A stretch of DNA of 64,000 nucleotides, from contig JACRNW010000001.1 of the NCBI GenBank assembly GCA_016214745.1, positions 1,038 through 65,037 on the forward strand. The letters run 5' to 3'. This document shows, piece by piece, positions 17,930-57,211 of this stretch. Origin of the DNA: Candidatus Falkowbacteria bacterium. GTDB lineage: Bacteria > Patescibacteriota > Patescibacteriia > XYB2-FULL-38-15. The notes under the pieces were generated by a model. It saw only the letters and a list, made by a program, of their open reading frames with translations, had not been told where the DNA came from and made no database searches. Each line of letters begins with the position of its first letter. Position 1 is the stretch's first letter. The translations under genes and the position numbers were made by a program.

Positions 17930-18280
17930 CTAGAATTTAGAATTAACAAAGTTATTTAATATTTTCATCACCTCTACTAAGGTAATCTCTACTCCTTTAA
18001 AACTTAATTTCGGAAATAAAACTTTAGCAATTTCGATCTGGCTTTCCAATTCTGACCCAGAACCAAACGCAACGCACAATAATTGTTTCTTTTCTTTGGC
18101 GTGAAAACGATGATAGCTCTCAGCAATATTGGAAGAAATAGAAATTACAGCTCTTCTCATCTGATTCGTTAAACCATACACTTCAGAATGAGGAAATTCA
18201 TCTGTCAACCGATAAATCTCTACAGCCAAATCACGCGCTTTCTGCCAAACCACCAATTCCTTAAAAGATTTTGTGGCCAT
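17930..18280 (-). CDS. four-helix-bundle protein (23S rRNA intervening-sequence protein family, TIGR02436-like)
   Basis: 116 aa. VVWQKARDLAVEIYRLT...ISSNIAESY is characteristic of this family. It is inserted between ftsE and ftsX. Confidence 0.7.
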   Translation of the reverse strand: MATKSFKELVVWQKARDLAVEIYRLTDEFPHSEVYGLTNQMRRAVISISSNIAESYHRFHAKEKKQLLCVAFGSGSELESQIEIAKVLFPKLSFKGVEITLVEVMKILNNFVNSKF

Positions 18281-27656: not shown

Positions 27657-28799
27657 TTAAATATTTTTATAAACTTTTTCCGTTTCGAAAACTATCATCT
27701 CCCAATTAAAATTTTCTTTGATAAATTTTTTACCTCGCTCTCCCCGCCCCGCCACAATCTCGGGAACAGCCATCAGATAAACTAATTTATCATAGAGATC
27801 ATTAATATTTTTTGTTTCAAAAGAAAATCCGGAATGGTCAATTGTTTCCATATTCTCCGGAATATTACTGATTAAGACGCATGTTCCATAAGACATCGCT
27901 TCTAAAATTGTAATGGAAAGCCCTTCGGCCTCGGAAGGGTGGACATAAAGATAAGCGTTCGCAAAAAGTTGTTTCAGCGGCTCGCCCACCTGAAATCCGG
28001 TAAAAATAATGTTTGGACTTTGTTCGGCGAGTTTATTCAAATAAGCATAGTAATCATCGGTAAAACTTGGCGCGCCGACAATTACTAATTTTTTAATCTT
28101 GCCGCCCGGCCAATTTTTCGGATCTTCACCAAAAGTATTTTCCATTTTCCGATAGGCCTGGATTAAATAGTGGATTCCTTTGTGTTTTATCAACCTTGCT
28201 ACCGTCAAAATATATGAATCTTTTTTCAGACCTAATTTTTCTATTTGGTCCGTCCCGCCGACTTTTTCCACGGCAACTCCGTTTGGAATATAGACAACTT
28301 CTTTTTTAAATTTTTCTCTACAATATTTTTGGATGGATTGGGAAACGGCAATGGTCTTATGCGCGAAATGAACCGCGGTCCATTCGCCCCAGCCAAGATA
28401 AATTCTCGCGAAGCGTCCCCATTTTTTATGAAATCGATCAATGCTATGAAAAGTAACAACAACTTTTGCTCTGGGTTTAAAAATTCTCGGAATCCAGGCC
28501 AGAGTAGACGGACCAATACCGTGGTAATGGATAACATCAACTTTTTTGAAAAGAACATTAATCGTTGCTAAAAAAGTATGAGTAATCGTGTCCAGATTTT
28601 TTGTGGCAATTGAGGGCAGGGAAATCAACCGAACGCCTTTATAATTTTTTTGACCGTTTATAATAAAACGGGGCCGGACGTAAGCTGAAACTTCGTGGCC
28701 GTTCGCGGCAAGCCGAACCGACAATTCCTCTACGTGCCGTTCTACTCCCCCGTCCCGAATAAACGGAATGCCCTTTTGGCCGAGCATGGCTATTCTCAT
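27657..28799 (-). CDS. glycosyltransferase family 4
   Basis: MRIAMLGQKGIP...HYHG...PSEAEGLSITILEAMSYGTCVLISNI... carries the E-x7-E region of GT4. Confidence 0.8.
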   Translation of the reverse strand: MRIAMLGQKGIPFIRDGGVERHVEELSVRLAANGHEVSAYVRPRFIINGQKNYKGVRLISLPSIATKNLDTITHTFLATINVLFKKVDVIHYHGIGPSTLAWIPRIFKPRAKVVVTFHSIDRFHKKWGRFARIYLGWGEWTAVHFAHKTIAVSQSIQKYCREKFKKEVVYIPNGVAVEKVGGTDQIEKLGLKKDSYILTVARLIKHKGIHYLIQAYRKMENTFGEDPKNWPGGKIKKLVIVGAPSFTDDYYAYLNKLAEQSPNIIFTGFQVGEPLKQLFANAYLYVHPSEAEGLSITILEAMSYGTCVLISNIPENMETIDHSGFSFETKNINDLYDKLVYLMAVPEIVAGRGERGKKFIKENFNWEMIVFETEKVYKNI

Positions 28800-28900
28800 A
28801 AAACTCTTGCCAAAAATAAAATGCCTTGGTATTATTATATCAAATTAAGACTAAAACGGCTATCAACGACTTCCTCGTTCTTTTTTTAAAATTTCATTAT

Positions 28901-28973
28901 GACCCGGTAGCTCAGCTGGTAGAGCATCTGCCTTTTAAGCAGAGTGTCCTGGGTTCGAGCCCCAGCCGGGTCA
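28901..28973 (+). tRNA. tRNA-Lys (anticodon UUU)
   Basis: GACCCGG-TA-GCTC-AGCTGGTA-GAGC-A-TCTGC-CTTTTAA-GCAGA-GTGTC-CTGGG-TTCGAGC-CCCAG-CCGGGTC-A. Confidence 0.9.
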
Positions 28974-28988
28974 TTTTTTATTTGCTAA

Positions 28989-29120
28989 TTTTTGGCTGGG
29001 CTCGAACGGGAAGGGGTCGGGAAACGGGAGTTTCCCGATTTGCGGAAATATTAAAACCGCAGGGTTTTAAAGCGCAGTCCCGCCATGGCGGGACGAGCAG
29101 TGAGCGCCCCAGCCGGGTCA
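28989..29120 (+). ncRNA. tRNA-linked structured element (copy 2) ending in duplicate of tRNA-Lys 3' end
   Basis: TTTTTGGCTGGGCTCGAACGGGAAGGGG, hairpin CGGGAAACgggaGTTTCCCG, hairpin TGCGG...CCGCA (compensatory relative to copy 1), GCGCAGTCCCGCCATGGCGGGACGAGCAGTGAGC, then GCCCCAGCCGGGTCA plus TTTTTTATTT, which duplicates 28958..28983. Confidence 0.55.
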
Positions 29121-29141
29121 TTTTTTATTTCCCCATAATTT

Positions 29142-29176: not shown

Positions 29177-29205
29177 TTGACAAAATCGATGATTTAACCT
29201 AAGAT
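29177..29205 (+). promoter_or_regulatory. sigma70-type promoter for the GGDEF gene
   Basis: TTGACA (29177..29182), a 17-nt spacer, TAAGAT (29200..29205). The SD AAGGAGG lies 7 nt before ATG 29258. Confidence 0.5.
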
Positions 29206-29257
29206 TTGAGGTCGCATGGATAGTACTTTCCCAAGACCACAAGAAGGAGGTGGGGCT

Positions 29258-29938
29258 ATGGGTTGTGAAAATGATTTTGACCAGCTACGTGATCTTACCG
29301 CGCGGCAACTGTGGATGGCACTCGCGGCGGCCTACCAGGCGCTCGCGGCGGACGAAGCCCAGATCAGGGGGTTCGGTGCCGTAGTCGTAGAGGCCGATGC
29401 TCGAATCGAGGAACTCGAGAGCGAGGTCAAGCGTCTGCGACGGCTCTTGGGCATTGACTTCTTGACCGGAGTCCCAAATCACTACCACATCATGGGGCTT
29501 CTGGAAAGAGAAATCGATCGCTCTAGGCGTTCCGGCTCCACTTTCAGCCTACTCTTCCTGGACATCGACCGCTTCAAGAACGTGAACAGCAACTACGGAC
29601 ACGAGGTCGGCAGTGCTGTCCTCCACGAACTGGCCAAACGGCTCGAGGCAGCTCTGCGACTCTCCGACGCCTTGGGACGATACGGCGGAGAGGAATTCAT
29701 CTTCATCCTTCCCAATGCGCCGCGAAAGGGAGCGGAAATCGCCGCCGAACGACTTCGGAAACTCGTCGCCGCCGAACCCTTCAAGATCGGCGACAAGTCC
29801 GTGGCCGTGACAGTGAGTATCGGCGTTGCCGAGTTCCGACGGACGGATACGGCGTCAAGCCTGATCGAAGCGGCGGATATGGCCATGCTCCAAGCCAAGG
29901 ACTTGGGCCGTAACCGCGTCGTCTCGGCTGAGCGATAG
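29258..29938 (+). CDS. GGDEF-domain diguanylate cyclase with N-terminal coiled coil, GC-rich (~62% GC)
   Basis: RYGGEEF is the GG[DE]EF active site, with upstream DxLTG-like DFLTGVPNH and ...FLDIDRFKNVN. The likely start is ATG 29258 after a strong SD; the ORF track starts at 29216. Confidence 0.85.
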   Translation: MGCENDFDQLRDLTARQLWMALAAAYQALAADEAQIRGFGAVVVEADARIEELESEVKRLRRLLGIDFLTGVPNHYHIMGLLEREIDRSRRSGSTFSLLFLDIDRFKNVNSNYGHEVGSAVLHELAKRLEAALRLSDALGRYGGEEFIFILPNAPRKGAEIAAERLRKLVAAEPFKIGDKSVAVTVSIGVAEFRRTDTASSLIEAADMAMLQAKDLGRNRVVSAER

Positions 29939-29945: not shown

Positions 29946-30000
29946 TCTCAAGGACAGAAAATCCCGCAACAAGGAGGTGCGGGACCGATTCTGTCCTTTT
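29946..30000. terminator. bidirectional hairpin terminator between convergent GGDEF and murG
   Basis: GGACAGAAAATCCCGCA...TGCGGGACCGATTCTGTCC followed by TTTTCTTTTTTT. Confidence 0.5.
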
Positions 30001-30014
30001 CTTTTTTTAATTTT

Positions 30015-31097
30015 CTATCTTTTTATCACTTTTAAAATCTCTTCTGTTATCTTTTCCGCCGCGCCGGAGGGCATAACTTCTTTAATATTTCTGCTCAAAC
30101 TTTCCAATTCTACTTCATTATTTAATAACTCTCCGACCGCTCCGACAAAATTTTCCGGCGTCAAATTATTTTCATCCCAAAAAACGACGGCGTTTTGTTT
30201 TTTAAAATAATAAACGTTTTCTTCTTGGTGACTCCCGGAAATCGGGATCACGGCCGTCGGTTTTCCGAGCATGGCAAGTTCAGTCAAGGTCGCCATGCCG
30301 GCGCGGGAAATCACAAGATCAGCCGCGGCAAAAACATCCGGCAAATCTTTCGTTAAAAAATCAACCGTGTGATAGCGCGCGGTTTCTCTTTTTATATTTT
30401 CAATTTTCATCCGCAACGACTCATCAATTCTTCCTCCGGTCATATGAATAACCTGACAAAATTTTACGAGTTCAAGCGCCGATGCGACAACAATCTTATT
30501 CAACTCCAGCGCTCCCGTCCCGCCGCCCAAAATGAAAAGTATCGGCAGATCTTTTTCCAGATTAAAAATTTCCGCGATTCTCTCTTTGCTTCCGGAAAAT
30601 ATTTCTTGCCGCACGGGATTTCCCGTCACGACGGCGCGAGAAAAATATTTTAGAGAATCGGAAAATGTCACTGTGATAATTTTTGCAAAACGCGCGGTTA
30701 ATTTATTCGCCAATCCCGGCCGGATATCTTGCTGATGAATTAAACTCGGCACGCGCAAAAACCATCCCGCCCAGACGACCGGCACGGCGACAAATCCGCC
30801 GGCCGACAAAATCATCTGCGGTTTAAATTTAAAAATCAGCCAAAGAGATTTAAAAAATCCCGCGAGAAGTAAAAAGGGCATCAAAAAATTCCATCCGGAA
30901 AAATACCGGCGCAATTTTCCCGCTGGCACAGCCGCGAATTTAATATTGCGCGATTCAATTATTTTTTTCTCCGGCCCGTTTTTTGTTCCGAACCAAAAAA
31001 ATTCCGCGTCGGGTACGCGCTTTTTTAATTCTTCCGCCACGGCCAGTAGCGGCGTCACCGATCCCATTGTTCCCCCGCCGGTCAAGATTATTTTCAT
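30015..31097 (-). CDS. murG: undecaprenyldiphospho-muramoylpentapeptide beta-N-acetylglucosaminyltransferase
   Basis: MKIILTGGGTMGSVTPLLAVAEEL...GGGTGALELN...ISRAGMATLTELA. Confidence 0.85.
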   Translation of the reverse strand: MKIILTGGGTMGSVTPLLAVAEELKKRVPDAEFFWFGTKNGPEKKIIESRNIKFAAVPAGKLRRYFSGWNFLMPFLLLAGFFKSLWLIFKFKPQMILSAGGFVAVPVVWAGWFLRVPSLIHQQDIRPGLANKLTARFAKIITVTFSDSLKYFSRAVVTGNPVRQEIFSGSKERIAEIFNLEKDLPILFILGGGTGALELNKIVVASALELVKFCQVIHMTGGRIDESLRMKIENIKRETARYHTVDFLTKDLPDVFAAADLVISRAGMATLTELAMLGKPTAVIPISGSHQEENVYYFKKQNAVVFWDENNLTPENFVGAVGELLNNEVELESLSRNIKEVMPSGAAEKITEEILKVIKR

Positions 31098-31122: not shown

Positions 31123-31714
31123 GGAGTTCACCCTTTAGGGTGTAAGTTCTAATCGCCCTCAACTGTAAAATCCACAATCGGATGTAACTCAAAAACCGAT
31201 TCTATCCACCCCAATCCTCTTTTTCCAATCCACTGCCCAGCGCTTGAAAATGGGTATTGAAAAGCCTCTGTTTGAGTTTTGCACAAACCGTGCTTTACTG
31301 GTTGATGATGAATATAATTAAAGTGCTTCCAAAAATCAACTTCATCGCGAATGCAATGATCCCAATAATTAAACCAAATTTTTCGTTTTTGTACGCGATC
31401 AATTTTATTTAATTGGAAAGCGCTTTTACCATTAATTGTTTGAATAAAGTCGGGTAAATCTTTTCCTCTGGCCATTTTAAAAAGCAGATGATAATGATTG
31501 GAAAGAATGCTCCAAGTATAAAAATTACTCTGAAATTTTCTCCCCGCCTCCCCAATTGTTTTATACAAAATTAATTTTTTATTTTGGCTGGAAAAAAATA
31601 GTTCCTGATTTACCGTTCTCGCCGTAATAAAATAAATTTGCTGGTCAACATACAAATGGGGCGGATAATGTGGTTTGAACATTAAAATATTCTACAGGCT
31701 AAAGCCTGAACTCC
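31123..31714 (-). mobile_element. REP-associated tyrosine transposase (RAYT/IS200-like Y1 transposase) unit flanked by inverted REP-like hairpins
   Basis: The Y1/HuH transposase gene (31149..31682) sits between GGAGTTCACCCTTTAGGGTGTAAGTTC (31123..31149) and its imperfect reverse complement TTCTACAGGCTAAAGCCTGAACTCC (31690..31714). The stems show compensatory changes (CACCC/GGGTG versus CAGGC/GCCTG). Confidence 0.65.
31149..31682 (-). CDS. Y1 (HuH) tyrosine transposase, IS200/RAYT family
   Basis: 177 aa. HYHLLF is the HuH motif, with a conserved Tyr in ...FNYIHHQPVKHGL. The size and motifs fit PF01797. Confidence 0.7.
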   Translation of the reverse strand: MFKPHYPPHLYVDQQIYFITARTVNQELFFSSQNKKLILYKTIGEAGRKFQSNFYTWSILSNHYHLLFKMARGKDLPDFIQTINGKSAFQLNKIDRVQKRKIWFNYWDHCIRDEVDFWKHFNYIHHQPVKHGLCKTQTEAFQYPFSSAGQWIGKRGLGWIESVFELHPIVDFTVEGD

Positions 31715-31729
31715 AAAAAAAATATAAAG

Positions 31730-32842: not shown

Positions 32843-33898
32843 TTAAAATCCTTTATCTATAAGCGAGATTACAAAACCCACTACCGCCGCCACTCCGGCG
32901 ATTACCCAAAAACGCATCACGATCTTTGGTTCAGGCCAACCCTTTGCTTCAAGATGATGATGAATCGGCGTTGAAAGAAAAACTTTTTTCCCGCGAATTT
33001 TTTTGGAGATAATTTGGATAATCACGGAAATTGATTCCACCGCGAACAAAAATCCGATGATTGGCAAAAGCAAAACGGAATTGGTAAGCATGGCCACAAT
33101 GCCGAGCGTTACGCCAAGCGACATTGCTCCCGTGTCGCCCATAAAAAATCTTGCCGGATTAATGTTAAACCAAAGAAAAGCTAAAAGAGCCCCGTCAATC
33201 GCGCCGCAAAAAGCGGCCAAATCAAATTTGCCTTGCGAAAAAGCAATCGCGCCATATGCGGCAAAAGCGGCCAAGAGCAATCCGCCGGCCAAACCATCCA
33301 GCCCGTCGCTTTCATTCACGGAAAAAGACGTCGCCACAATTATAAAAATAAAGAGCGGGAAGTACCACCAGCCGATGGAAAAATTTCCGAGAAACGGCAC
33401 ATGGATGAAGTTCCAATCAAGTTTAAAATAAAACCACCAGGCGCCGACAATAGCTATAAACGTATAAATCAAAAGTCTGTGGCGCATTCTAAATCCCCCG
33501 CCGTTCGGCCCGATTTTCCGCGCGTTCAGATAATCGTCAACCAAACCGACAATTGCCGAAGCAACTAAGGCGCCAAGCGGCAGAAGCGTCTGCGAACGCG
33601 TTAAAAAATTTAGATTTTTTAAAATTTCCCAATTGGTCCACTGGCCTAAATAAAAAAATAATAAAGCCAAAAATAAAACTGTAACCCAAATTAAAACTCC
33701 GCCCATAGTCGGCGTGCCGGATTTTGCCTTGTGGAGCGCCGACATTATCGGCGCAGATTTTTCATCCCTGATTTGTTTGCCCAACTTATACTTAAACAAA
33801 AAGTGTGTCAGGGCCGGAGTCCAGGCCATGGCAATAATAAATGAAAGGGTTGTCAGAATAAAAATTTTAATGATTGCAAAACTATCCATGAGATTCAT
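32843..33898 (-). CDS. mraY: phospho-N-acetylmuramoyl-pentapeptide transferase
   Basis: Has the typical MraY motifs ...VDDYLNARK...NESDGLDGLAGG... Confidence 0.9.
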   Translation of the reverse strand: MNLMDSFAIIKIFILTTLSFIIAMAWTPALTHFLFKYKLGKQIRDEKSAPIMSALHKAKSGTPTMGGVLIWVTVLFLALLFFYLGQWTNWEILKNLNFLTRSQTLLPLGALVASAIVGLVDDYLNARKIGPNGGGFRMRHRLLIYTFIAIVGAWWFYFKLDWNFIHVPFLGNFSIGWWYFPLFIFIIVATSFSVNESDGLDGLAGGLLLAAFAAYGAIAFSQGKFDLAAFCGAIDGALLAFLWFNINPARFFMGDTGAMSLGVTLGIVAMLTNSVLLLPIIGFLFAVESISVIIQIISKKIRGKKVFLSTPIHHHLEAKGWPEPKIVMRFWVIAGVAAVVGFVISLIDKGF

Positions 33899-34287
33899 TG
33901 GTTAATCATAATAACCGCGTAAGCGGCAAGAGATAATAAAACCTGAATAAAGGCGGAGACGCCGGCCAAAAAATAACTTGTCACTTTGTCGCGCAGATAA
34001 ATTATGTCCGCCAAAATAAGATTGATGATAATAAAAAAAATTCCCACTAAAGGCATAATAAATATTTCATACCATCTGCCGATAAAATCAACTCCAAAAT
34101 AAATATTGTAATGCAGGGGCAAAACTTCTCCAATCGACCGGAACTCAGAAAATTTAAGATAAAGAATAGCCCAAAGAAATAAATTTAACGCCAAAGAAGT
34201 AATTAACAAAATTCTGAAAAAACCGTCCTTAAAAACTAAGACGGTGAAAATTTTAAAAAATTTTTTAATGGCGGAGAAAAAAAACAT
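33895..34287 (-). CDS. small integral membrane protein, hypothetical
   Basis: 130 aa, 4 TM helices, 4-nt overlap with the mraY start. Confidence 0.45.
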   Translation of the reverse strand: MFFFSAIKKFFKIFTVLVFKDGFFRILLITSLALNLFLWAILYLKFSEFRSIGEVLPLHYNIYFGVDFIGRWYEIFIMPLVGIFFIIINLILADIIYLRDKVTSYFLAGVSAFIQVLLSLAAYAVIMINQ

Positions 34288-34289
34288 AA

Positions 34290-35489
34290 TTACTTTTTGA
34301 TGGGCGACATCTTTCTGAGCCGCGCCACAATTCCGGGTAAAACTTTTAAAAGACGCTCCACGTCTTCTCGGGAATTATCTTTACCAAAAGTGACGCGCAC
34401 GCTGCCATGAGTCACTTCTGGGGAAACGCCCATGGCCGTTAAAACATGGGACGGCTCCAGCGATCCGGAAGAACAAGCCGAGCCGGTGGAAACCGCGATG
34501 CCTTCCATATCAAGCATTAATAAAATACTTTCACCTTCAACATTTTTAAAACAAAAATTAGCGTTTCCGGGTACGCGCTGTTTTAAATCGCCATTTAAAA
34601 TAGCGCTTGGAATTTTTTTAAGAATTTCCCCGACCAACTTGTCGCGTAATTTTTTAATATTCGCGTTTATTTTTTTTATTTCATTTTTATCAGTCAACAT
34701 TTCCACCGCCCTGCCCATTCCAACTATACCGGCAACGTTTTCCGTTCCCGAACGGATTCCCCGCTCTTGATGTCCGCCAAAAATAATTGGTAAAAGCGGC
34801 GTACCAGATTTTATAAAAAGAACTCCTGTTCCTTTTGGTCCGTAAATTTTATGAGCCGAAAGAGAAAGCATATCAACTCCGAGCCAATCTACCCGGCAGT
34901 CGCAAAAATTCGCCGCCTGAACCGCGTCGGTATGGAAATAAATTTTGTCTTCCTTACCGCGACCGGCATTTACTTCTTTGATAATCTGGCTAATCTCTTG
35001 TATCGGCTGAATAGTACCGACCTCATTGTTAACATACATTATGGAAATCAAAATTGTTTCCGGCCGAATTGCTTTTTTCACGTCCTCTAATCTGACAAGT
35101 CCGGCACGGCTTACCGGCAAATAAGTAACTTCAACTTCTTCTTTTTTTAATTCCCGGCAAACTTCAAGAACTGCCGGGTGTTCAATCGCCGAAGTAATAA
35201 CGTGAACTTTTCTTTTTAGATCAAGCGCTCTCGCCCGGCGAACTAAACCAAAAAGAGCCAAGTTGTTGCTTTCTGTCGCGCCGGAAGTAAAAATGACTTC
35301 TTTTGATTCGCATTCTAAAAATTTTGCCACTTGCTCCCGCGCTTTTTCAACCCCAGCCCGCGCTTTCTGTCCAAAACTGTGGAGCGATGAGGCATTACCA
35401 AAATCAGCCGTAAAGTACGGCTTCATCGCCCGCAAAACTTTGGGATCAACCGGGGTAGTAGCTGAATGATCTAAATAAATGCGCTTCAT
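34290..35489 (-). CDS. iscS: cysteine desulfurase (IscS/NifS, class V aminotransferase)
   Basis: YLDHSATTP...SLSAHKIYGPKGTGVL...SSGSACSS. Confidence 0.9.
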   Translation of the reverse strand: MKRIYLDHSATTPVDPKVLRAMKPYFTADFGNASSLHSFGQKARAGVEKAREQVAKFLECESKEVIFTSGATESNNLALFGLVRRARALDLKRKVHVITSAIEHPAVLEVCRELKKEEVEVTYLPVSRAGLVRLEDVKKAIRPETILISIMYVNNEVGTIQPIQEISQIIKEVNAGRGKEDKIYFHTDAVQAANFCDCRVDWLGVDMLSLSAHKIYGPKGTGVLFIKSGTPLLPIIFGGHQERGIRSGTENVAGIVGMGRAVEMLTDKNEIKKINANIKKLRDKLVGEILKKIPSAILNGDLKQRVPGNANFCFKNVEGESILLMLDMEGIAVSTGSACSSGSLEPSHVLTAMGVSPEVTHGSVRVTFGKDNSREDVERLLKVLPGIVARLRKMSPIKK

Positions 35490-35557
35490 GATTATTTTGT
35501 ATTTTATATCTAGTATTTAAATTTCAAAATACTTTATACTTGATACTTTATACTTTT

Positions 35558-35782
35558 TTACACCGCCTGCACTTCTTTCACGCCTTTAACTTTTGCTTTC
35601 AGAGCTCTCTCAATTCCCTGCTCCAGGGTCATCGCGGCCATGGGGCAATGATGGCAGGCGCCGACGAGTTTAACTTTTACCACGCCGGTTTTTTCATCAA
35701 CATCAACCAATTCCACATCGCCGCCGTCAGCCTGAAGCGCTGGACGTAATTCGTCTAAGATTTTTTTAACACTATCTTCCAT
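35558..35782 (-). CDS. NifU-like (Nfu) Fe-S cluster carrier domain protein
   Basis: VKVKLVGACHHCPMAAMTLEQGIE has the CxxC motif of the Nfu domain. Confidence 0.8.
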   Translation of the reverse strand: MEDSVKKILDELRPALQADGGDVELVDVDEKTGVVKVKLVGACHHCPMAAMTLEQGIERALKAKVKGVKEVQAV

Positions 35783-35793
35783 AAAATTATAAT

Positions 35794-36189
35794 TTACTTT
35801 TTTAATTTTTTAATCGCGTCATGCAATGCCTCAACCGCGAGCACCGAACAGTGAAGTTTAATCGGCGGCAGACCGCCGAGCGATTCGGCGATATTGGCTT
35901 TTGTAACTTTCGCCGCGACTTCCAGAGGCTGGCCTTTTACCAAATCCGTAATCATAGAAGAAGTAGCAATGGCCGCGGCGCAACCCAAAGTTTCAAATTT
36001 TATATCTTTAATATAATCAACCTCTTTTCCGCCGACTTTTTTCTTATCAATCTTTAAATATAATTTCATCATGTCGCCGCAAAGAGGATTTCCCGATTCG
36101 CCAACCACAGTCGGATTTTTAATCACGCCTTGATTGTGCGGACTCTTAAAATGTTTGATGACTTCCTTTGAATATATAACTTGAGACAT
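35794..36189 (-). CDS. iscU: Fe-S cluster assembly scaffold IscU
   Basis: GNPLCGD...GCAAAIATSSM...LPPIKLHCSVLA (LPPVK-type motif). Confidence 0.85.
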   Translation of the reverse strand: MSQVIYSKEVIKHFKSPHNQGVIKNPTVVGESGNPLCGDMMKLYLKIDKKKVGGKEVDYIKDIKFETLGCAAAIATSSMITDLVKGQPLEVAAKVTKANIAESLGGLPPIKLHCSVLAVEALHDAIKKLKK

Positions 36190-36199
36190 AAAAAATAAA

Positions 36200-36577
36200 T
36201 TAAGCTGCTATTCTCTTTTTTTGATTTAAAAAATCGTCTAAACGCCGATAGTAATCTTTTATTTCTTCCTTCCCGCTCCCGTCTTCTCTTTCCAAAATTT
36301 TTCTATTTTGCTCCAACGCTTCCTTAATATCACCAACAATCTCCATATCATTGGGAGCGAGTGCTTTGTCCAATTTCTCAAACAATTTATCAATCTTCAC
36401 AACCGCCACCATTCTTCTTTTTCCCTCAACAACCATTTCTTTTGACATTTCTTCTTCACCATCTTTTAAAGACTCATTGTATGCCCTTTTTTCTTCTAAT
36501 ATTTTTTCTAACGTTTCTTCTGGTAGTTCTTCCTCCTCGTCTATCTCCGGGAAAGAAGAAATTTCTGATTTTTTCAT
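36200..36577 (-). CDS. acidic hypothetical protein
   Basis: 125 aa, E/D/K-rich. Confidence 0.4.
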   Translation of the reverse strand: MKKSEISSFPEIDEEEELPEETLEKILEEKRAYNESLKDGEEEMSKEMVVEGKRRMVAVVKIDKLFEKLDKALAPNDMEIVGDIKEALEQNRKILEREDGSGKEEIKDYYRRLDDFLNQKKRIAA

Positions 36578-36586
36578 AAATAAATT

Positions 36587-36841
36587 TTAAGCCGCTTTTT
36601 TAATGGCGCTCTCAAGTCTTTTATAATAAGTGTCTATCGTCTCTTGCGCTTCCTTGCCAAAAAGTTTATGGTATCTTTTTAACGCCTCCCTTGCTTCGCT
36701 GGCTATTTCTCCTTGCTGTTCCTCGGGCAAATTGCCTTTCTCCAGTTCTCCCAACAATCGGTCAAGTGTTGCCATTATTTCCACCTCAGCCGTAGCTTCC
36801 GGAGACATCGGCTCCCTATCGTCATATTGTGGTTTTCCCAT
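36587..36841 (-). CDS. hypothetical protein
   Basis: 84-aa ORF. Confidence 0.4.
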   Translation of the reverse strand: MGKPQYDDREPMSPEATAEVEIMATLDRLLGELEKGNLPEEQQGEIASEAREALKRYHKLFGKEAQETIDTYYKRLESAIKKAA

Positions 36842-36916
36842 ATAAAATAAACTAAAGATTTAATCCTCCATTTTTCAATTATATCTTATTCTCACTTAAA
36901 ATTCAAGGGGTGTCAT

Positions 36917-36945
36917 TTGACATTTTAGGAACAATCATCTAAAAT
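36917..36945 (+). promoter_or_regulatory. sigma70-type promoter upstream of 36980 gene
   Basis: TTGACA (36917..36922), a 17-nt spacer, TAAAAT (36940..36945). Confidence 0.5.
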
Positions 36946-36979
36946 GGGAATATAAAAAAATAATCTTAAATTAAACAAT

Positions 36980-37297
36980 ATGGGACCAGAAAGAAGAGAG
37001 GCGCCACCACAAGAATACGGCGTGGAACAATTTAAGGGTGACTTGCAAAGAGAACTTGAGCAAGAATTACGAGATTGGGAACTCGATCTCCAATCGCGAG
37101 ATCAAGGAGATACCGATGCCTTAGAAATAGCGCTAAAGCACGTACGATTTAAAAGGGGCAAAAAGGATGAAGAAGGGGTAAGTGAAGAAATCGAAAATAG
37201 CGCCCAGGGATTTATAACAAGAGAATTGGAAAGAGAAGATATCCGCAGAAGGATGGAAGCGATTAGACGCGTCCTTGCCAAACTTTCCGGAAAATAA
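36980..37297 (+). CDS. hypothetical protein
   Basis: 105-aa ORF located directly after the promoter. Confidence 0.45.
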   Translation: MGPERREAPPQEYGVEQFKGDLQRELEQELRDWELDLQSRDQGDTDALEIALKHVRFKRGKKDEEGVSEEIENSAQGFITRELEREDIRRRMEAIRRVLAKLSGK

Positions 37298-37352
37298 ATT
37301 ATATCCAGTAACTTTCAACTTTACAAACTTTATAACTTTATAAACTAAAAAT

Positions 37353-37637
37353 ATGGCTCATAAAAAAGCAGGCGGTTCTACTAGTTTAGGCCGCGATTCA
37401 CAAGCTCAACGCTTAGGCGTAAAAATGACCGAAGGCCAAATGGCTTTTCCTGGCCGGATTTTGGTTCGCCAACGCGGAACAAAAATCCATCCCGGTAAAA
37501 ACGTCCGCCGAGGAAGCGATGATACTTTATACGCCGTCGCCGAAGGAATGGTAAAGTTCACCACGAGAAAAAAGACTAAATTTGACGGACATTTACGCAT
37601 GACAAAAATTGTAAACGTCATGCCTAAAGAAGCATAA
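37353..37637 (+). CDS. rpmA: 50S ribosomal protein L27
   Basis: [24 protein letters not shown]...[10 protein letters not shown]. Confidence 0.9.
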
Positions 37638-37704
37638 ACCAAGACAAAATATTTAACTAAAAGGACAGTCCTCGTACACAAGGACTGTCCTTTTAGAAAC
37701 TATA

Positions 37705-38499
37705 TTATTTTTCCACGACCACCATTACCCGCGCGCCAGTTCTCATATCTGGTTCTGGCCGAGGATCCTGGTAGGCCCGCACCCCGCCCACCCAATCATG
37801 TACTGCCCAAAGCAAATCACCGTACAAATAACGATACGCTTCGCCGCGGCGCGTCCCCGGGTCATTTGTAATGAACTCGGTCTGATTATAACCGCGAATC
37901 ACGAGCATATGATAAAGCGGCCCCGGTTGTTTATAATATGGATTGCCGACGTCCCGGCCAGCCAACGGCACAATAATTAAATCTCCGGCGACTAATTTTT
38001 TCTTAATTTCCGTTTCCGTCACCATTTTATCAAGAGACGACTTGAGACCAAAATATTTGTCTAAAACTTCCACCACTTGCGCCGCGGTCAAATCAAGCGG
38101 ATAACCGTTGTCATCCTCCCATTTTACCAACTTCAAAATTTCCTCTGCCATTATGTTATTGTCCAATTTTTCATTTTTAAAATATTTCGCGACCATAATC
38201 ATTGATGCTTCCTCGCAGGCCTCCTGATATGGCATACTCCAATCTCCAAGCGGCGCCTGAGAAGCAAAAGCAACTGGCGCGAGAAAATCAGCGGGCAGGG
38301 CGGACGACGTCTGAATTGCGTTAACATTTGCCGGCGGAACTTGCGACGCGCTATTAGTGTTCGCGCTTGTATTTGTGTTTACATTATAGTTAGTCGGCTG
38401 GCTATTCTGATTATTTTGATTATTAACAATTGACGACTGTGTTCCGCAGCCGGCGCCGACGAGAAATAAAATTGCGACGATGAAAAATAAACGTTTCAT
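37705..38499 (-). CDS. lipoprotein with peptidase-C39-like domain
   Basis: Lipobox LVGAGC, an N/Q-rich linker, then a C39-like fold region containing ...EACEEASMIMVAKYF... Confidence 0.5.
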   Translation of the reverse strand: MKRLFFIVAILFLVGAGCGTQSSIVNNQNNQNSQPTNYNVNTNTSANTNSASQVPPANVNAIQTSSALPADFLAPVAFASQAPLGDWSMPYQEACEEASMIMVAKYFKNEKLDNNIMAEEILKLVKWEDDNGYPLDLTAAQVVEVLDKYFGLKSSLDKMVTETEIKKKLVAGDLIIVPLAGRDVGNPYYKQPGPLYHMLVIRGYNQTEFITNDPGTRRGEAYRYLYGDLLWAVHDWVGGVRAYQDPRPEPDMRTGARVMVVVEK

Positions 38500-38550
38500 G
38501 GACTTTAATGATCTTACGTTTTAACAAATTAACCCGACCCCTCTTCCAAT

Positions 38551-40176
38551 TTACTTGCGTGATTTTAAACACGCTGAAATAAATTCTTTAAAAAGCGGGT
38601 GTGGATTTAATGGACGCGACTTGAATTCTGGATGAAATTGCACTCCGACAAAAAACGGATGATCTTTGATTTCAATAATTTCTACTAAAGAATTATTCGG
38701 CGAAGTGCCGGCAATCACAAGCCCCGCTTTTTCAAACTGCTCCCGGTAAGCGTTATTAAATTCATAGCGATGGCGATGACGCTCGGAAATATTTCTTTGG
38801 CCGTAAGCTTTATAACTCAGAGATTTCTTATTTAAAATGCAGGGATACGCGCCAAGCCGCATTGTCCCGCCATATTTTTTATTTTTGATTAGATTACCCT
38901 GCTCCTCCATAATATGGACGATTGGATTTGTTGTTTTGGGATTGATTTCCGCGGTGTTAGCGTCCGCGAGTCCGCAAATATTTCTTGCGAACTCCACCAC
39001 CGCCATCTGCATTCCGTAGCATAATCCAAAATAAGGAATTTTATTTTCCCGGCAATATTGAATTGCCTTAATTTTACCCTCAACGCCGCGTGATCCAAAA
39101 CCGCCCGGCACAATTACTCCGTCAAGTTGTTTTAAATCTTTAAGTTTAGACGGGTCTTTTTCAAACTCTTCCGAATTCAACCAAGTCAAAACTGGTTTAC
39201 AATTATGCGCCCAAGCCGCATGTTTGATTGCTTCAATCACGGAAATATAGGCGTCGGACAAAACAAAATTTCCGGTGGTAAAATATTTTCCGACAATGCC
39301 GACGCGCACTTCGCCCTTGGCTGTTTTTATTGTCTTAATGAGCTTCTTCCAATCAGCCAAATCTTTCTGCCGCGCGCGCATATAAAATTTAGAAAGAATT
39401 CTCTGACCTAGCTGCTCTTTTTCAAAGTTGAGCGGCACTTCATAAATTGTATCAATATCCGGCGCGGAAATAACATCGCGTTTGTCCACGTTACAAAAAA
39501 TTGAAATTTTTCTTTTTCTCGGTTCGTCAAGCGGCTGTTCGGCGCGGCACAAAATAAAATCCGGCTGAATTCCCGCGGCGTTTAAAAGCTGAGCTGCCTG
39601 CTGAGTCGGTTTGGTTTTCATTTCTCCGATTTTTGACGGAATCGGCAAATAACTAACTAAAACAAAAAGGACGTCGTCCGGACGCCGCTGATGAAGCATT
39701 CTCGCCGCTTCCAAAAATAAAACATTTTGATATTCGCCGACCGTGCCGCCGACTTCCACGATGACAAAATCCGCCTTGGCAATTTTTCCCGCCCGCCGGA
39801 TTCTTCTGATGACTTCTTCCGGAACGTGCGGCACAACTTCCACGCATCGGCCGCCGTACTCCAAGTTTCTTTCTTTTTGAATAACCGTCTGGTAAACCCG
39901 GCCAGTTGTCATGTAGTTGTCGGAATAAATATTTTCGTTCAAAAAACGTTCATAATTTCCAATGTCCTGATCTGTCTCATCGCCGTCTTCGGTGACAAAA
40001 ACTTCACCGTGCTCAACCGGGTTCATTGTCCCGGCGTCAATATTAATGTAAGGATCAATTTTTACCGCCGTCACGCGGAAGCCCTTACCTTGTAAAATTT
40101 TCCCGATGGAGGCCGAAGCTGTCCCCTTGCCGACTCCGGACATCACGCCGCCAACCACAAAAATAAATTTAGGCAT
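38551..40176 (-). CDS. pyrG: CTP synthase
   Basis: MPKFIFVVGGVMSGVGKG... and the C-terminal GATase domain GLCYGMQ...HRHRYE. The start is set at ATG 40176; the ORF track uses an upstream TTG at 40185. Confidence 0.95.
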   Translation of the reverse strand: MPKFIFVVGGVMSGVGKGTASASIGKILQGKGFRVTAVKIDPYINIDAGTMNPVEHGEVFVTEDGDETDQDIGNYERFLNENIYSDNYMTTGRVYQTVIQKERNLEYGGRCVEVVPHVPEEVIRRIRRAGKIAKADFVIVEVGGTVGEYQNVLFLEAARMLHQRRPDDVLFVLVSYLPIPSKIGEMKTKPTQQAAQLLNAAGIQPDFILCRAEQPLDEPRKRKISIFCNVDKRDVISAPDIDTIYEVPLNFEKEQLGQRILSKFYMRARQKDLADWKKLIKTIKTAKGEVRVGIVGKYFTTGNFVLSDAYISVIEAIKHAAWAHNCKPVLTWLNSEEFEKDPSKLKDLKQLDGVIVPGGFGSRGVEGKIKAIQYCRENKIPYFGLCYGMQMAVVEFARNICGLADANTAEINPKTTNPIVHIMEEQGNLIKNKKYGGTMRLGAYPCILNKKSLSYKAYGQRNISERHRHRYEFNNAYREQFEKAGLVIAGTSPNNSLVEIIEIKDHPFFVGVQFHPEFKSRPLNPHPLFKEFISACLKSRK

Positions 40177-40190
40177 AAATATCAAAACAA

Positions 40191-40282
40191 TTAATTACCT
40201 AATTACAATAAATTACTTAATTACACTTTTTTCTAAAAAGCAACGAGGTAACTGGGCAACTAGGTAATTAAGTAACTCAAAA
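40191..40282. repeat. AT-rich TAATTAC-unit palindromic intergenic element (family 2, copy B)
   Basis: TTAATTACCTAATTACAATAAATTACTTAATTACAC-TTTTTT-...GGTAACTGGGCAACTAGGTAATTAAGTAACTC is homologous to 2089..2168. Confidence 0.5.
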
Positions 40283-40729
40283 TTATTTCTCTTCTACTAC
40301 CCTCACCAAAATCTTCACATCCAGTCCCTGACCTAATTTTACCATAACTTCGTGTCCACCAACATCCTTAATCGATTTTTCTAATTTTATCTGGTCCTTA
40401 TCTATTTCAAAACCTTTTTTCGCGAGTTCAATCGCTATTTCCGAAACACCGATGGATCCGTAAAGTTTTCCGCCTTCACCAACCTTGGCCGCGATTTTAA
40501 TTTCCACGCCGGAAAGTTCTTTAGCTAATTTTTTTAATCGTTTCTCCTCGTGTGCCGCTTTTTCCGCCGCCGCCTTCTTCTCCATCTCAACTTTTGTCAC
40601 CGCTCCGGCCGTGGCGAGCCGCGCTAAACCCTTCGGAATTAAAAAATTCCGGGCGTAACCCTCGGCCACCTCTTTTGTCTCCCCCGCCCGTCCGACTTTA
40701 TCCACATTTTTAAGAAGAATAACTTTCAT
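40283..40729 (-). CDS. rplI: 50S ribosomal protein L9
   Basis: [36 protein letters not shown]. Confidence 0.9.
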
Positions 40730-40750
40730 ATCAGTTTATTATAGCACAAA

Positions 40751-41713
40751 TTATAAAGTAGTAATTGGCCTGGACTGGACGATGTAAAATTTCCTTTTTT
40801 CCAGTGCCCATTCAATATCGCAAGGAAATTTATAATGCTTTTCAATCGCCGCGCAGATTTTTGCGAGATCAACAATTTGCCGGCCGTCCAGTTTCTGGCG
40901 GTTCCGCAACTTTCCCGGCACTGGTTTCCTAAAAACCCCGGCAGGGCCTTTCCTTGTCCGCATCATTTCCTGCTCGCTTACATTTATGTCTAAAATTTCC
41001 CAATGCCTTTTGTCTAAAACATATGCATCCGGCGTTACTTCCCCGCCGACAAGCGACTCCCCAAGCCCAAAACAGGCTTCAATTATCATCTGATTTTTAT
41101 CACGCGTCACGGGATGGACCGTAAAACAAACGCCAGCCACTTCCGATTGCACCATTTTTTGCACCACGACCGCCACAGAAACGTGCGACCGGCGCAAACC
41201 TTTTTCATTACGGTAAAAAATCGCCCGCTCCGTAAAAAGCGACGACCAACATTTTTTTACCATGCCTAATAAATTTTGCCGCGTCACATTTAAATATGAT
41301 TCCAACTCTCCGGCCCAGGAAGCCTGCGAAGAATCCTCGGCCGTTGCCGAAGAACGAACCGCCACAAGCAAATATTTTGACGCCGCAGTTTTGGCCAAAA
41401 CGTCGTAGGCAGACAAAATTTCTTTTTGCAAATCAATTGGCATTCGCGCGTCATGGATCAAATCACGAATTTTTAGCGAGGCCTGATCAACCGAATTTAC
41501 ATCTTTATAATTTATTTTATCCAAAGCCGCTTCAATTTCCACTCCCAAATCCGTTTCTTTCAAAAATCTTTCAAACGATTGGGCTGTTACCACAAATCCG
41601 GGCGGCACATTAATTTTTGCGCTGGTCATTTCTCCGAGCGACGCTCCTTTTCCCCCGGCTAATTTCACGTCTTTTTTAGAAATTTTTGAGAATGGCAAAA
41701 TAAATTCTTTCAT
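40751..41713 (-). CDS. stand-alone PPDK_N ATP-grasp domain protein (PEP synthase / pyruvate phosphate dikinase N-terminal nucleotide-binding domain)
   Basis: VKLAGGKGASLGEMTSAKINVPPGFVVT...AVRSSATAEDS...IVQSRPITTL. It has the PPDK_N domain and no His or TIM domain. Confidence 0.8.
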   Translation of the reverse strand: MKEFILPFSKISKKDVKLAGGKGASLGEMTSAKINVPPGFVVTAQSFERFLKETDLGVEIEAALDKINYKDVNSVDQASLKIRDLIHDARMPIDLQKEILSAYDVLAKTAASKYLLVAVRSSATAEDSSQASWAGELESYLNVTRQNLLGMVKKCWSSLFTERAIFYRNEKGLRRSHVSVAVVVQKMVQSEVAGVCFTVHPVTRDKNQMIIEACFGLGESLVGGEVTPDAYVLDKRHWEILDINVSEQEMMRTRKGPAGVFRKPVPGKLRNRQKLDGRQIVDLAKICAAIEKHYKFPCDIEWALEKRKFYIVQSRPITTL

Positions 41714-41723: not shown

Positions 41724-43340
41724 TTATTTAATAATTTTTACCACGCCGTGATTGGCGTCCACCTCTACTATATCGCCATCTTTTAAAACCTTTGTCGCGA
41801 TTTTGGTGCCGATGACACAGGGAATACGAAGTTCGCGAGCCACAATTGCCGCATGAGAAGTTACCCCACCCTGCTCCGTAACAATAGCTGCGGCTTTTTT
41901 CATGGCTGATACTAAATCTGGATTAGTGGCGATAGAAACTAAAATATCGCCCTTCCGCATCTTTTCCATGTCTTCGGGATTGATAACAATTCTCACCGCA
42001 CCCTTCGCTTTTCCTACACAACCACACTGACCTTTTATTTCGCTGACTTCTTCTGCCCCTTTTTCCCGAACTGATTCCGCTAACCTTTTTGCCTTCTCGC
42101 CCGTAAAGACCACGTCTCTCTCCTTTTCGGCGTAATAAACGCAAAGTTTTGTCCGCTTCTTAATTTCTTTTTTATCAAGTCTACTTTTCAAAAGAGCTGC
42201 CCCAACTTCCTGCGGCAGCATAAATTTTACTTGCATCAAACTCAAACCCAGTCTTCTTCCGATCTCCCGTAAAATCGCTTCCATTTGATAAATAGCAAAT
42301 ATCTGCGCATAACGGCGGTATATTTTTGTAATCATAAAATTGCCAAAAGCATCAAAAATTTTTCTCCAGCCGCCTTTGATTTTCAATTTTTTAATCAATG
42401 CATTTCTTTTTCGAACGCCCACTTTAAACTCCTGCTGCATTTCTTGATATTTCTTTTCCAAATCACCTGATACCACAAGCCTCACCAATTCTTTCAGATA
42501 ATGATCAAAACTGTAAATCCCCTGCTTTTCAGTAAAAAGATATCTCATGTAAAAATACTTAAGATAATGTTTTTCTAAAAGTTTATAAATTTCCGGACCA
42601 ATTCTTTCTTTGATTTTTCCCGCTTCTTGCTCAAACAGTTCTTCATATTTTTTTGAATGGGTTTTAAAACCGTACTTTGTTACCTCCCCCTCTTTAAACT
42701 TTTTAAATAATTCCAGAAATAATTTGAGCTGATTTTTGTCTTGTTGAACTTTTTGACCAATTTTCAAAAGTTCCTCTTGTTCAACTTGAATAAGAGATTT
42801 TTGGATTGGCTGAGTAAGAATGACTAGATGTTCATTTATTTTTTCTTCGGAAATTCCAGCGTCTCGCAGATGCTCTTTTAATCGATTAGTCAGATTATTG
42901 TGAAACATGTCAGCAGCAACCGGAATCCATCCCCAACAATAATAGTCAGTGTGAATTTGGTCATGCTTATTGTAAAATTTCCACAACTCTCGTTTAGACA
43001 ATTGCGATAAATTATCTTGTGGCAAAGTATTGGCGTAATTTCTTAACTTATCTGACCAGATTATAATCTCTTTGTTGACCCGCTCGGCGAACTTTGGATT
43101 TTTAATAAATTTTTGGACTATATTCTCACCAACCTCAAAGGAATCATTTTCCCCGTAATAAAACCAAAGATGATAACCGCGATAAATACAAATAATTTTT
43201 TTATAAGCACGACCAGTGAATCTCTTAAATTCATTAACAAAATTTGAAAGCCAGATCTGAGAAAATAAAAAATCGCAATTTGGAATCTCTTCCCCCAACA
43301 TCCACAAGTCTTTGTCATTTAAATATTTCAGCTTTTTCAT
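41724..43340 (-). CDS. PEP-utilising-enzyme mobile (phosphohistidine swivel) domain protein with ~380-aa helical N-terminal domain, paralog 1
   Basis: C-terminus [30 protein letters not shown]. Confidence 0.75.
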
Positions 43341-44839: not shown

Positions 44840-45118
44840 ATATTTATTTTTTGTTCATGTTTCTTTTTCAGTCTCCTTGTCCAATCTAATCGCGTCGCAA
44901 TAATGCGCAGACACCGCACCCATTTGACAAAATTTTCAAAATAGATTATACTATATTGTTTGGTAAAGGTGAAAAATTGTCTGATTCTAGACAATTTTTC
45001 CCATACTAAATTGCACTTTGATAGTGGGCAAAAATTGTTTGGAGACGCTCTATTTATCTCGGTTGAGGTAACGAGAGCGTCTTCAAACAACCGCCCCGAG
45101 GGGGCAAGGAGGAGATCA

Positions 45119-45727: not shown

Positions 45728-45757
45728 CCTACCTCACCTTTCCCACCGAAGTGCATC

Positions 45758-45796
45758 TCCCACGCCCGGTCTCCTGACTGGGCGTTCTTTTTTTAT
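45758..45796 (+). terminator. rho-independent terminator
   Basis: CACGCCCGGtctcctgaCTGGGCGTTCTTTTTTTATTT. Confidence 0.5.
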
Positions 45797-46051
45797 TTAC
45801 CCTGTTAAATAAGATTTGAGCCGATTCCTTAAAAATAACTTGCCGAGATAGGTCTTTAAATACTTTTCTCTATGGGTGGCATCTTGTTGATTCAAACAAG
45901 CCTCATAATATATTAAAACTAATGGCCCTCTGTCTTTAGTAGATTCAACTTTCCTTTTTTGATGAAGCTCAAATCTTGATTTTAAATCTTTGGTATAACC
46001 TGTGTAGAATTTTTTATCCTTTAAGGACATCAAAACATATACGTAATGCAT
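45797..46051 (-). CDS. GIY-YIG nuclease superfamily small protein
   Basis: 84 aa. HYVYVLMSLKDKKFYTGYTKDLKSRFELHQ is the GIY-(10-11)-YIG module. Confidence 0.7.
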   Translation of the reverse strand: MHYVYVLMSLKDKKFYTGYTKDLKSRFELHQKRKVESTKDRGPLVLIYYEACLNQQDATHREKYLKTYLGKLFLRNRLKSYLTG

Positions 46052-46061
46052 AGATTTAAAA

Positions 46062-47576: not shown

Positions 47577-47591
47577 ATTTTTACTATTAAT

Positions 47592-49127: not shown

Positions 49128-49136
49128 AAAATATTC

Positions 49137-57082: not shown

Positions 57083-57211
57083 ATATTAAAAATTAATCTC
57101 TTTTGCTCCTTAATCCTAATAAAATACGTGTTTTTTGTCAATTTAAAAAAACACCGCTTCGGCAATGTTTGGTTGCCAAAACGGTGTGTCACCTCCTTCT
57201 CCTTGTCGCGA

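Follow-up and report, generated by a model that had tools for sequence, protein, structure and literature searches.

A stalk-GGDEF protein with both base-contacting residues changed, encoded in a slot inherited within one clade of Falkowbacteria-like Patescibacteria

What kind of enzyme, if any, is encoded by a GC-rich GGDEF gene lying beside tRNA-Lys in a patescibacterium, and is the gene a newcomer there? The question arises at positions 29258-29938 (+) of a 64,000-nucleotide stretch from a Candidatus Falkowbacteria bacterium (contig JACRNW010000001.1), hereafter the window, where a first-pass annotation had proposed a cyclic di-GMP (c-di-GMP) synthase acquired next to the tRNA. Judged from alignments, the product is probably not an ordinary c-di-GMP synthase, because the Asp that selects guanine is replaced by Ser and the Arg that acts across the dimer by His. 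Judged from synteny, the gene is inherited within its clade and was not acquired by this genome, since in every member examined it stands in one and the same slot, bordered on one side by tRNA-Lys or a radical-SAM gene and on the other by the 3' end of murG.

An open reading frame (ORF) at 29216-29938 (+) was confirmed in the window. The preferred start is almost certainly the ATG at 29258 and not 29216, because it has the right spacing to a Shine-Dalgarno sequence (AAGGAGGTG, 29244-29252 (+), with GGAGG 7 nt before the ATG), matches the 226-aa NCBI protein model P0001 (100% identity, titled 'GGDEF domain-containing protein [Candidatus Falkowbacteria bacterium]') and aligns with the first residue of all homologues. 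The coding sequence (CDS) of this 226-aa stalk-GGDEF protein is then 29258-29938 (+), stop codon included. Antisense ORFs within the GC-rich gene (101 aa in the window, 171-198 aa in relatives) were rejected as genes; they have no Pfam match and are expected by chance in GC-rich DNA.

Relatives of the locus (numbered L001 onwards) were gathered by a protein search with the neighbouring GT4 glycosyltransferase, taking one genome per species, by a DNA-pattern search of metagenomes that used the site at 28807-28835 as pattern, and by exact-protein look-ups. A promoter scan placed a sigma-70-type promoter, TTGACA-17-TAAGAT, at 29177-29205 (+); it matches at 10 of 12 positions, and three such sites were found in the region versus 0.8 expected. 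The promoter elements CTTGACAAAA (-35) and TAAnAT (-10) are kept in L001, L002, L004 and L008, and GGAGG or GGGAGG stands at the same place in relatives. Downstream, an inverted repeat and a terminator scan (hit at 29981-29997) define a terminator at 29950-30008 (+), with a stem AAGGACAGAA/TTCTGTCCTT around an inner hairpin and then a run of T; it points towards the 3' end of murG and is kept in L001. The promoter and strong Shine-Dalgarno sequence proposed on first pass are thus borne out, both by the scan and spacing and by the hexamers kept in relatives, and on these signals the GGDEF gene is real and expressible, with its own promoter, ribosome-binding site and terminator. As a side observation, the 19-nt stretch containing the Shine-Dalgarno sequence (CCACAAGAAGGAGGTGGGG, 29237-29255) recurs at 84% identity (CCGCAACAAGGAGGTGCGG, 29964-29982) in the loop region of the terminator just 3' of the stop codon, and the L001 terminator also contains a palindrome with GGGAGG; the recurrence may be chance.

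The protein belongs among GGDEF-domain proteins by full-length profile matches above curated cut-offs, namely Pfam GGDEF PF00990 (E 3.9e-44, 150.7 bits against a cut-off of 23.8, profile positions 3-161 of 161) and TIGR00254 (154.2 bits against 37.4), and by the expected fold. These matches and alignments to PDB structures put the domain at residues 66-223 (29453-29926 (+)). An AlphaFold2 model from a 53-sequence alignment (mean predicted local distance difference test score 95.1) has an unbroken helix at residues 15-64 followed by a GGDEF fold with a root-mean-square deviation of ~1.0-1.5 A to PleD and 3ign. Within the helix (29300-29449 (+)), one heptad register has 93% hydrophobic residues at a/d positions versus 58% overall, which makes this N-terminal stalk a putative dimerising coiled coil. 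Alignments of homologues define a family motif, RQLWxALAAAYxALAxDEAxIR, at residues 14-36. The closest fold matches are other stalk-GGDEF structures: SiaD (7e6g), a GCN4-WspR fusion (3i5c) and Caulobacter DgcB (6ttr). No sensor domain is present in the 226 residues, so that the earlier description, a coiled coil at the N-terminus and no obvious sensor, stands.

The same holds for its statement of an intact GGEEF site. In alignments, GGEEF occupies residues 143-147 (29684-29698 (+)), with Glu145 where Hypr enzymes have Asp374, and an I-site RLSD (RxxD; family consensus RxYD) lies five residues 5' of it at 29657-29668 (+). The canonical motif and ligand residues are conserved, comprising D102, D104, K107, N110, R141, K214 and R218 besides GGEEF itself.

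Two other positions of the pocket are changed. At the base-selectivity position (Asp344 in PleD, Ser348 in GmGacA) the alignments place Ser119, codon AGT at 29612-29614 (+), in place of the canonical Asp. At the cross-dimer position (Tyr304 in GmGacA), ungapped alignments to 6et7/5llx and 6d9m place His75, codon CAC at 29480-29482 (+), in place of the canonical Arg. The alignment to GmGacA 6d9m (E 3.5e-29, ungapped) pairs His75 with Tyr304, Ser119 with Ser348 and Glu145 with Asp374. Opposite His75 and Ser119, SiaD, WspR and the Idiomarina cyclase have Arg and Asp, as do all 17 of the other family members (17/17). At the 38 columns invariant in those 17 sequences, the window protein differs at three, R75H, D119S and Y136S, the last in the middle of the I-site RxYD. 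Since other members have between none and three such private changes (0-3) against its three, the window copy on this count does not look generally decayed. Calculated post hoc, the chance that three changes at random would include both specificity determinants is 36/8436 = 0.004. The Ser codon AGT has none of its three positions in common with the GAC of L001.

How rare the combination of Ser with GGEEF is can be read from wider samples. Among the 120 nearest homologues it recurs only in nine sequences, 98-100% identical to one another and from one Blastocatellia species. In a further set of 303 GGDEF domains, taken from 149 diverse representatives, Ser or Thr at the selectivity position is never joined to an intact motif, and the domains that have lost the Asp nearly always have a degenerate motif too. 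On these counts we rejected the idea that Ser/GGEEF is a conserved natural class. No closer orthologues with the Ser/His pair were found among 5.8 billion proteins (best match 63%) or 1.84 billion representatives. The protein of this acidobacterial species, a 313-aa FHA-GGDEF protein (P0062, P0083, P0084, P0087, P0091-P0093, P0102 and P0108), combines Ser and GGEEF with the cross-dimer Arg. By its sequence it is a second natural exception to the rule that enzymes with Ser/Thr348 are exclusively GGDE[F/Y].

That rule comes from Hallberg et al. 2019 (PMC6456294), who studied the choice of nucleotide in these enzymes. In their account 94% of diguanylate cyclases contribute an Arg as the base-stacking residue across the dimer, where GacA has Tyr304, and with Tyr, Ser, Ala or Gln there mainly cyclic GMP-AMP (cGAMP) is produced. 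Under their 'Goldilocks' rule Ser348 is functional only with the shorter Asp of GGDEF: GacA D374E, which is Ser/GGEEF, is inactive; WspR mutants echo the GacA trends, WspR D226S being inactive; the four canonical cyclases inactivated by D-to-S are all GGEEF; and natural Ser/Thr348 enzymes in a set of 139,801 sequences are exclusively GGDE[F/Y] (PMC6456294). A D-to-S mutant of GSU3350, which is GGDEF, is still an active diguanylate cyclase, and the authors conclude that only GGDEF enzymes lie on the mutational path to cGAMP synthesis, Ser/GGEEF being non-functional (PMC6456294).

For the family as a whole, the proposed mechanism follows its structural analogues. As in SiaD, DgcB and GCN4-WspR, the stalk would dimerise in parallel and so keep two GGDEF domains together, two GTP would be condensed to c-di-GMP, the product would inhibit through the RxxD I-site, and control would be exerted by transcription or by a partner binding the conserved N-terminal motif (compare SiaD/SiaC). 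In the window copy, Asp119->Ser and Arg75->His on a GGEEF background would remodel the base pocket. The protein would still dimerise and bind nucleotide, canonical GTP selection would be lost, c-di-GMP output would be lost or strongly reduced, and any residual activity would be Hypr-like, using adenine and guanine to give 3'3'-cGAMP or cyclic di-AMP (c-di-AMP). By analogy with the characterised enzymes, we tentatively favour such a remodelled pocket, in which GTP selectivity would be weak or gone and any remaining activity promiscuous in the Hypr manner, at somewhat less than an even chance.

Several points weigh against this remodelled pocket. Its statement about activity is a transfer from GacA, WspR and four other enzymes, and the dimer formed by the coiled coil is a prediction. 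The 'Goldilocks' model has Ser/GGEEF not binding substrate, which favours a dead over a promiscuous enzyme (PMC6456294). His at the cross-dimer position is not diagnostic alone, since about 8% of the nearest Asp-bearing homologues have it too; the Ser/His variant is a single sequence, from one metagenome-assembled genome; and Ser/GGEEF, carried by the Blastocatellia species as well, is a combination not strictly absent in nature.

The published inactivations and the exclusive pairing of Ser/Thr348 with GGDE[F/Y] speak for a pseudo-enzyme, in which D->S on GGEEF has abolished substrate binding and the protein is either being lost or kept as an I-site c-di-GMP binder or scaffold. Every Ser/GGEEF enzyme tested (GacA D374E, WspR D226S and the four GGEEF cyclases) is inactive (PMC6456294), and our own samples add the absence of the combination from the 303 domains (0/303), the usual company of Asp loss and a degenerate motif, the singleton status of the variant and the retained RxxD. 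We nevertheless consider a pseudo-enzyme a rather unlikely outcome. The ORF, promoter, ribosome-binding site and other catalytic residues are all intact, and the private substitutions are no more than those of relatives. Two of the three private changes fall on known specificity determinants (p about 0.004, post hoc), a pattern that looks directed, unlike decay, and AGT is three nucleotide steps from the GAC of the family. A receptor without a synthase in a tiny genome would also have nothing to sense, as far as the 64-kb window goes. In sum, the published mutagenesis argues 'dead', while the directed substitution pattern and the otherwise intact gene argue 'remodelled'.

The intact residues could also be read as those of an ordinary active diguanylate cyclase, a scaffold in which Ser and His are tolerated and c-di-GMP is still made: GGEEF, the Mg-binding Asp residues, Asn110, Lys107, Arg141 and the I-site are present, the Pfam score is high, the nearest families are canonical cyclases, and His stands at the Arg position in other, Asp-bearing homologues. 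The precedent for a tolerated Ser is the GSU3350 mutant, but that enzyme is GGDEF and not GGEEF, and all GGEEF-type D-to-S mutants are inactive (PMC6456294). Both base-contacting residues are moreover changed together, in this genome only, and we regard ordinary activity as unlikely. The first-pass 'c-di-GMP synthase' is doubtful: this is a GGDEF-domain protein with intact GGEEF and RxxD, whose synthase activity is called into question by Asp119Ser and Arg75His, Ser/GGEEF being inactive in PMC6456294.

The boldest version of the remodelled pocket would be an active, purine-promiscuous GGEEF cyclase making cGAMP, c-di-AMP or another dinucleotide that is not c-di-GMP, which had gained the two Hypr substitutions (Asp to Ser, and Arg to an aromatic residue able to stack) independently, in a recombining, allele-swapping cassette whose GC is actively maintained by selection or biased gene conversion within an AT-rich minimal genome. 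We see this as improbable; if true, it would contradict the published rule, by which an enzyme with Ser/GGEEF is unable to bind substrate.

Known systems each match the window protein in part. Stalk GGDEF cyclases (SiaD, DgcB, GCN4-WspR) give the best sequence and fold matches and share the long N-terminal helix followed by GGDEF, the GGEEF motif and RxxD, but the window protein has Ser for the guanine-selecting Asp and His for the cross-dimer Arg, and the RQLWxALAAAY motif belongs to the window family only. SiaD is the best NCBIfam model, yet the equivalog score of 162 lies below the cut-off of 290, and a SiaC-like partner gene is not found near the window gene. With the Hypr enzymes (GacA/GSU1658, Gmet_1914 with PDB 6d9m/5VS9, and Bd0367), which make 3'3'-cGAMP, the window protein shares Ser348, in the context GHEVGS versus GHLVGS in GmGacA (VGS identical in both), and a residue other than Arg at the Tyr304 position, in this case His, which is aromatic and not among the tested Tyr, Ser, Ala, Gln and Arg. 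It differs from them in the central Asp of GGDE[F/Y], its motif being GGEEF with Glu145 opposite Asp374. A receiver domain is absent from the window protein; the GEMM-Ib riboswitch is absent from the 64-kb window; and the Ser variant is a single sequence, not a conserved clade. Because it is without two canonical features (Asp, Arg) and one Hypr feature (the GGDEF Asp), the protein is, on alignment, to be filed under neither canonical diguanylate cyclases nor Hypr enzymes. Degenerate GGDEF domains can serve as c-di-GMP receptors through the I-site, as in PelD and PopA, and such receptors normally also have a degenerate GG[DE]EF motif. The window copy has in common with them the retained RxxD and a compromised active site, and differs in its intact motif and its intact ligands for metal and phosphate.

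Would such a protein have partners nearby? A Pfam search of about 57 window ORFs at E<=1e-4, with the stretch 32843-41713 judged only by synteny with an annotated relative, found no EAL, HD-GYP, PilZ or MshEN domain in the window, in agreement with the first-pass annotation, which had seen no EAL, HD-GYP or PilZ partner. Rfam gave no c-di-GMP or cGAMP riboswitch, GEMM-Ib included, in the 64 kb, where only four tRNAs reached gathering scores. A cobalamin-riboswitch candidate at the locus was sub-threshold (21 bits versus 50, from a search at E<=1) and was rejected. The view that a diguanylate cyclase gene is unexpected in a minimal-genome lineage was overstated, as an earlier study had counted such genes in the ultra-small genomes of Patescibacteria (PMC9938205). 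In the literature on c-di-GMP in Patescibacteria, this gene-count remark is all that we found.

We turn to the second half of the question, the origin of the gene. The family is very small: the best non-self matches among 5.8 billion proteins are 55-63% identical, only two other family representatives exist among 1.84 billion proteins, and the best matches outside the family, 45-49% identical, come from several phyla. By these searches it is found only in one genus-level clade of Falkowbacteria-like Patescibacteria. There the slot has a fixed order of GT4, tRNA-Lys and GGDEF, then murG-ftsW on the opposite strand. L001, on a 567-kb contig, carries an M50-CBS protease, GT4, tRNA-Lys, GGDEF, murG and ftsW in the order and orientation of the window, and the same slot holds a GGDEF gene in L001-L004, L008, L058-L062, L064 and L066-L069, at least 12 independent assemblies; the L066 copy is truncated where its contig stops. 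L003 and L061 have a radical-SAM gene between tRNA-Lys and the GGDEF gene. Only the outgroup L005, whose GT4 is 78% identical, is without the GGDEF gene and has a MiaB-like radical-SAM gene there instead. Because of this outgroup and the foreign composition of the gene, a single old gain in the clade ancestor, without identifiable donor, is plausible.

A recent horizontal acquisition at a tRNA-Lys hotspot, marked by a duplicated tRNA 3' end, had been the first reading of the locus. It rests on a GC content of 0.60, with 0.69 at third codon positions (GC3), in a genome of 0.42, on the adjoining tRNA-Lys and 25-nt duplication, and on the absence of the gene from L005. We judge it very improbable, and for this genome the comparisons contradict it. 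The same slot is filled in at least 12 relatives, the circumstance that the first-pass annotation itself had named as telling against acquisition, and the flanking genes of these relatives are separated by a synonymous divergence (dS) of ~1 or more. Both repeats lie upstream of the gene and none downstream, L001 and L004 have the gene without the duplication, and in L003 and L061 the radical-SAM gene parts the tRNA from the GGDEF gene. GC-richness is confined to the CDS, between a promoter and a terminator that are AT-rich and conserved. An ORF and Pfam scan found no integrase between GT4 and murG and the gene is not bracketed by repeats, unlike a tRNA-targeted element; no viral relative exceeds 43% identity, and no GC-rich donor has the family. 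The horizontal-transfer story is thus largely refuted. Other readings were tried and rejected: a phage, as viral contigs carry only distant GGDEF genes (<=43% identity); a defence system, as PADLOC matches neither the GGDEF protein nor its neighbours and the flanks are the housekeeping GT4 and murG; and a GC-rich donor genome, as every member with readable context sits in the same AT-rich Patescibacteria slot.

Although the slot is stable, its content is not uniform. A comparison of 18 family members separates at least four GGDEF-domain types, 42-57% identical between types and 68-91% within, which are combined with two N-terminal modules, 'RQLWIALAAAY' and 'MFEGMTREE'. Neighbour-joining groups the flanks as ((L001,L002),L004,window),(L003,L008), and the GGDEF domains as window with L008, L001 with L004, L003 with P0002 and P0011, and L002 alone. 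L001 and L002 illustrate the conflict: four concatenated flanking proteins are 90% identical and the GGDEF domains 52%, nucleotide identity falls from about 84% to about 57% over the CDS, and non-synonymous divergence (dN) is 0.45 in GGDEF versus 0.04-0.08 in the flanks. Within allele types, dN/dS of 0.05-0.38 indicates purifying selection. On these comparisons the slot is a mosaic locus of divergent alleles exchanged among species, whose distribution conflicts with the flank phylogeny; it tells against this that the incongruence comes from neighbour-joining trees and saturated distances.

Base composition is the most visible oddity of the locus. GC runs at 0.53-0.62 across the gene versus about 0.38-0.45 around it (0.60 for the gene, 0.42 for the window), and its GC3 of 0.69 compares with 0.38-0.47 in the four flanking genes and a mean of 0.43 +/- 0.09 in the other 75 window ORFs. 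The enrichment starts and ends with the CDS, the conserved promoter and terminator being AT-rich. All family alleles have GC3 of 0.63-0.72, in genomes whose GC3 is ~0.43, while dS between these genomes in the flanking genes is ~0.7-1.3, and 2.6-3.2 at the deepest split. The simpler reading is that high GC is maintained, passive decay from a very GC-rich donor being the less likely alternative; the maintenance may reflect biased gene conversion where recombination is frequent.

A second GC-rich single gene lies at 45119-45727 (+) (GC 0.61, GC3 0.76), on the strand opposite to its neighbours. Its 202-aa product is histidine-phosphatase-like (PF00300, at only E 0.002) and has 13 homologues in 5.8 billion proteins; a 50%-identical homologue in L070 occupies the same slot, with PEP-utilizer paralogues on both sides, and has GC 0.62-0.65 where the background is 0.42. 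Since high GC3 persists over synonymous divergence of ~1 or more, and a second window gene behaves alike, 'GC-rich, therefore recently acquired' is an unsafe inference in these genomes. Two further GC-rich islands were seen, one at 57101-58100 (peak GC 0.68) with a 241-aa ORF at 57393-58118 (-), the other at 7851-8456 (-) (peak GC 0.57) with a 201-aa ORF; neither ORF has a Pfam, NCBIfam or PADLOC match.

The duplication that had suggested integration lies in the surroundings of the tRNA gene. tRNA-Lys (anticodon UUU) lies at 28900-28974 (+) (ARAGORN; Rfam tRNA, 71.6 bits), adjoining the GT4 gene at the same position in all relatives, and is preceded at 28807-28835 (+) by a promoter-like site, TTGCCA-17-TATTAT with an extended TG, found by promoter scan and invariant in five relatives. 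A direct-repeat search showed that the end of the tRNA region forms an exact 25-nt direct repeat (28959-28983 and 29106-29130). No third copy occurs in the window with <=3 mismatches allowed, and none lies downstream of the GGDEF gene; both copies being upstream, the gene is not bracketed. Between them is a hairpin-rich insert of 122 nt, which with the second repeat copy spans 28984-29130 (+) and is separate from the GGDEF cassette: these 147 bp occur in L002 and L068 and are absent from L001 and L004, which keep the GGDEF gene. We treat the insert as an integration or deletion scar unrelated to the GGDEF gene, and recombination between the 25-nt repeats could have created or removed the region. 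The claim of acquisition next to tRNA-Lys fails here as well, the duplication being wholly upstream and missing from L001 and L004. As a conserved structured RNA the insert was rejected; it folds at -61.7 kcal/mol (z -2.2 versus shuffles), only a modest excess, its third hairpin is not kept in L002, it is single-copy in the window, and it matched no Rfam family.

The flanks are otherwise conserved. On the left, Pfam identifies the GT4 glycosyltransferase at 27657-28799 (-), 81-88% identical in relatives, and on the right murG at 30015-31097 (-), supported by synteny, starts a murG-ftsW-mraY cluster. A REP-associated tyrosine transposase (NF047646, 97.7 bits versus a cut-off of 80; Pfam Y1_Tnp) at 31149-31682 (-) has been inserted after murG and before ftsW in the cluster. 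Short hairpins border it at about 31127-31147 and 31692-31715, and it is missing in L001 (a 600-bp alignment gap). A palindromic element of ~55 nt (...AGCGAGTGAGAGAAATGAAATTTTAATTTCATTTCCGAACGAGCG...) occurs in L001 at 10745-10800, 3' of the GGDEF terminator, and in L002 between the tRNA and the insert, at about 5770-5820 on the minus strand of the locus. It may be a mobile repeat of the REP (repetitive extragenic palindromic) or MITE (miniature inverted-repeat transposable element) kind, and has no copy in the window at <=3 mismatches.

Elsewhere in the window almost all ORFs are on the minus strand; the few plus-strand features include tRNA-Lys, the GGDEF gene and the 45119 gene. The stretch 41724-50675 (-) has five paralogous ORFs in tandem, each of about 500-540 aa, in which the one domain recognised is a PEP-utilizers mobile domain at the C-terminus (PF00391, E 1e-23 to 1e-28). 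Their N-terminal ~420 residues are without a match, and in L070 shorter relatives stand on either side of the GC-rich gene. Between ftsX and an ABC ATPase gene, at 17930-18280 (-), is an ORF assigned to the '23S rRNA-intervening sequence protein' family (PF05635, E 1e-28).

Signalling by nucleotide second messengers is almost unstudied in ultra-small, host-dependent Patescibacteria. If the family is active, it would provide one clade of them with a minimal, one-gene signalling module without a sensor domain, housed in a persistently GC-rich mosaic cassette that is itself an oddity of these genomes. The window copy amounts to a natural experiment on nucleotide choice in GGDEF enzymes, with both Hypr-type changes on GGEEF, the background that the structural model calls unworkable. 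As a cheap, direct test of that published structural rule, the pocket variant could confirm the model or overturn it.

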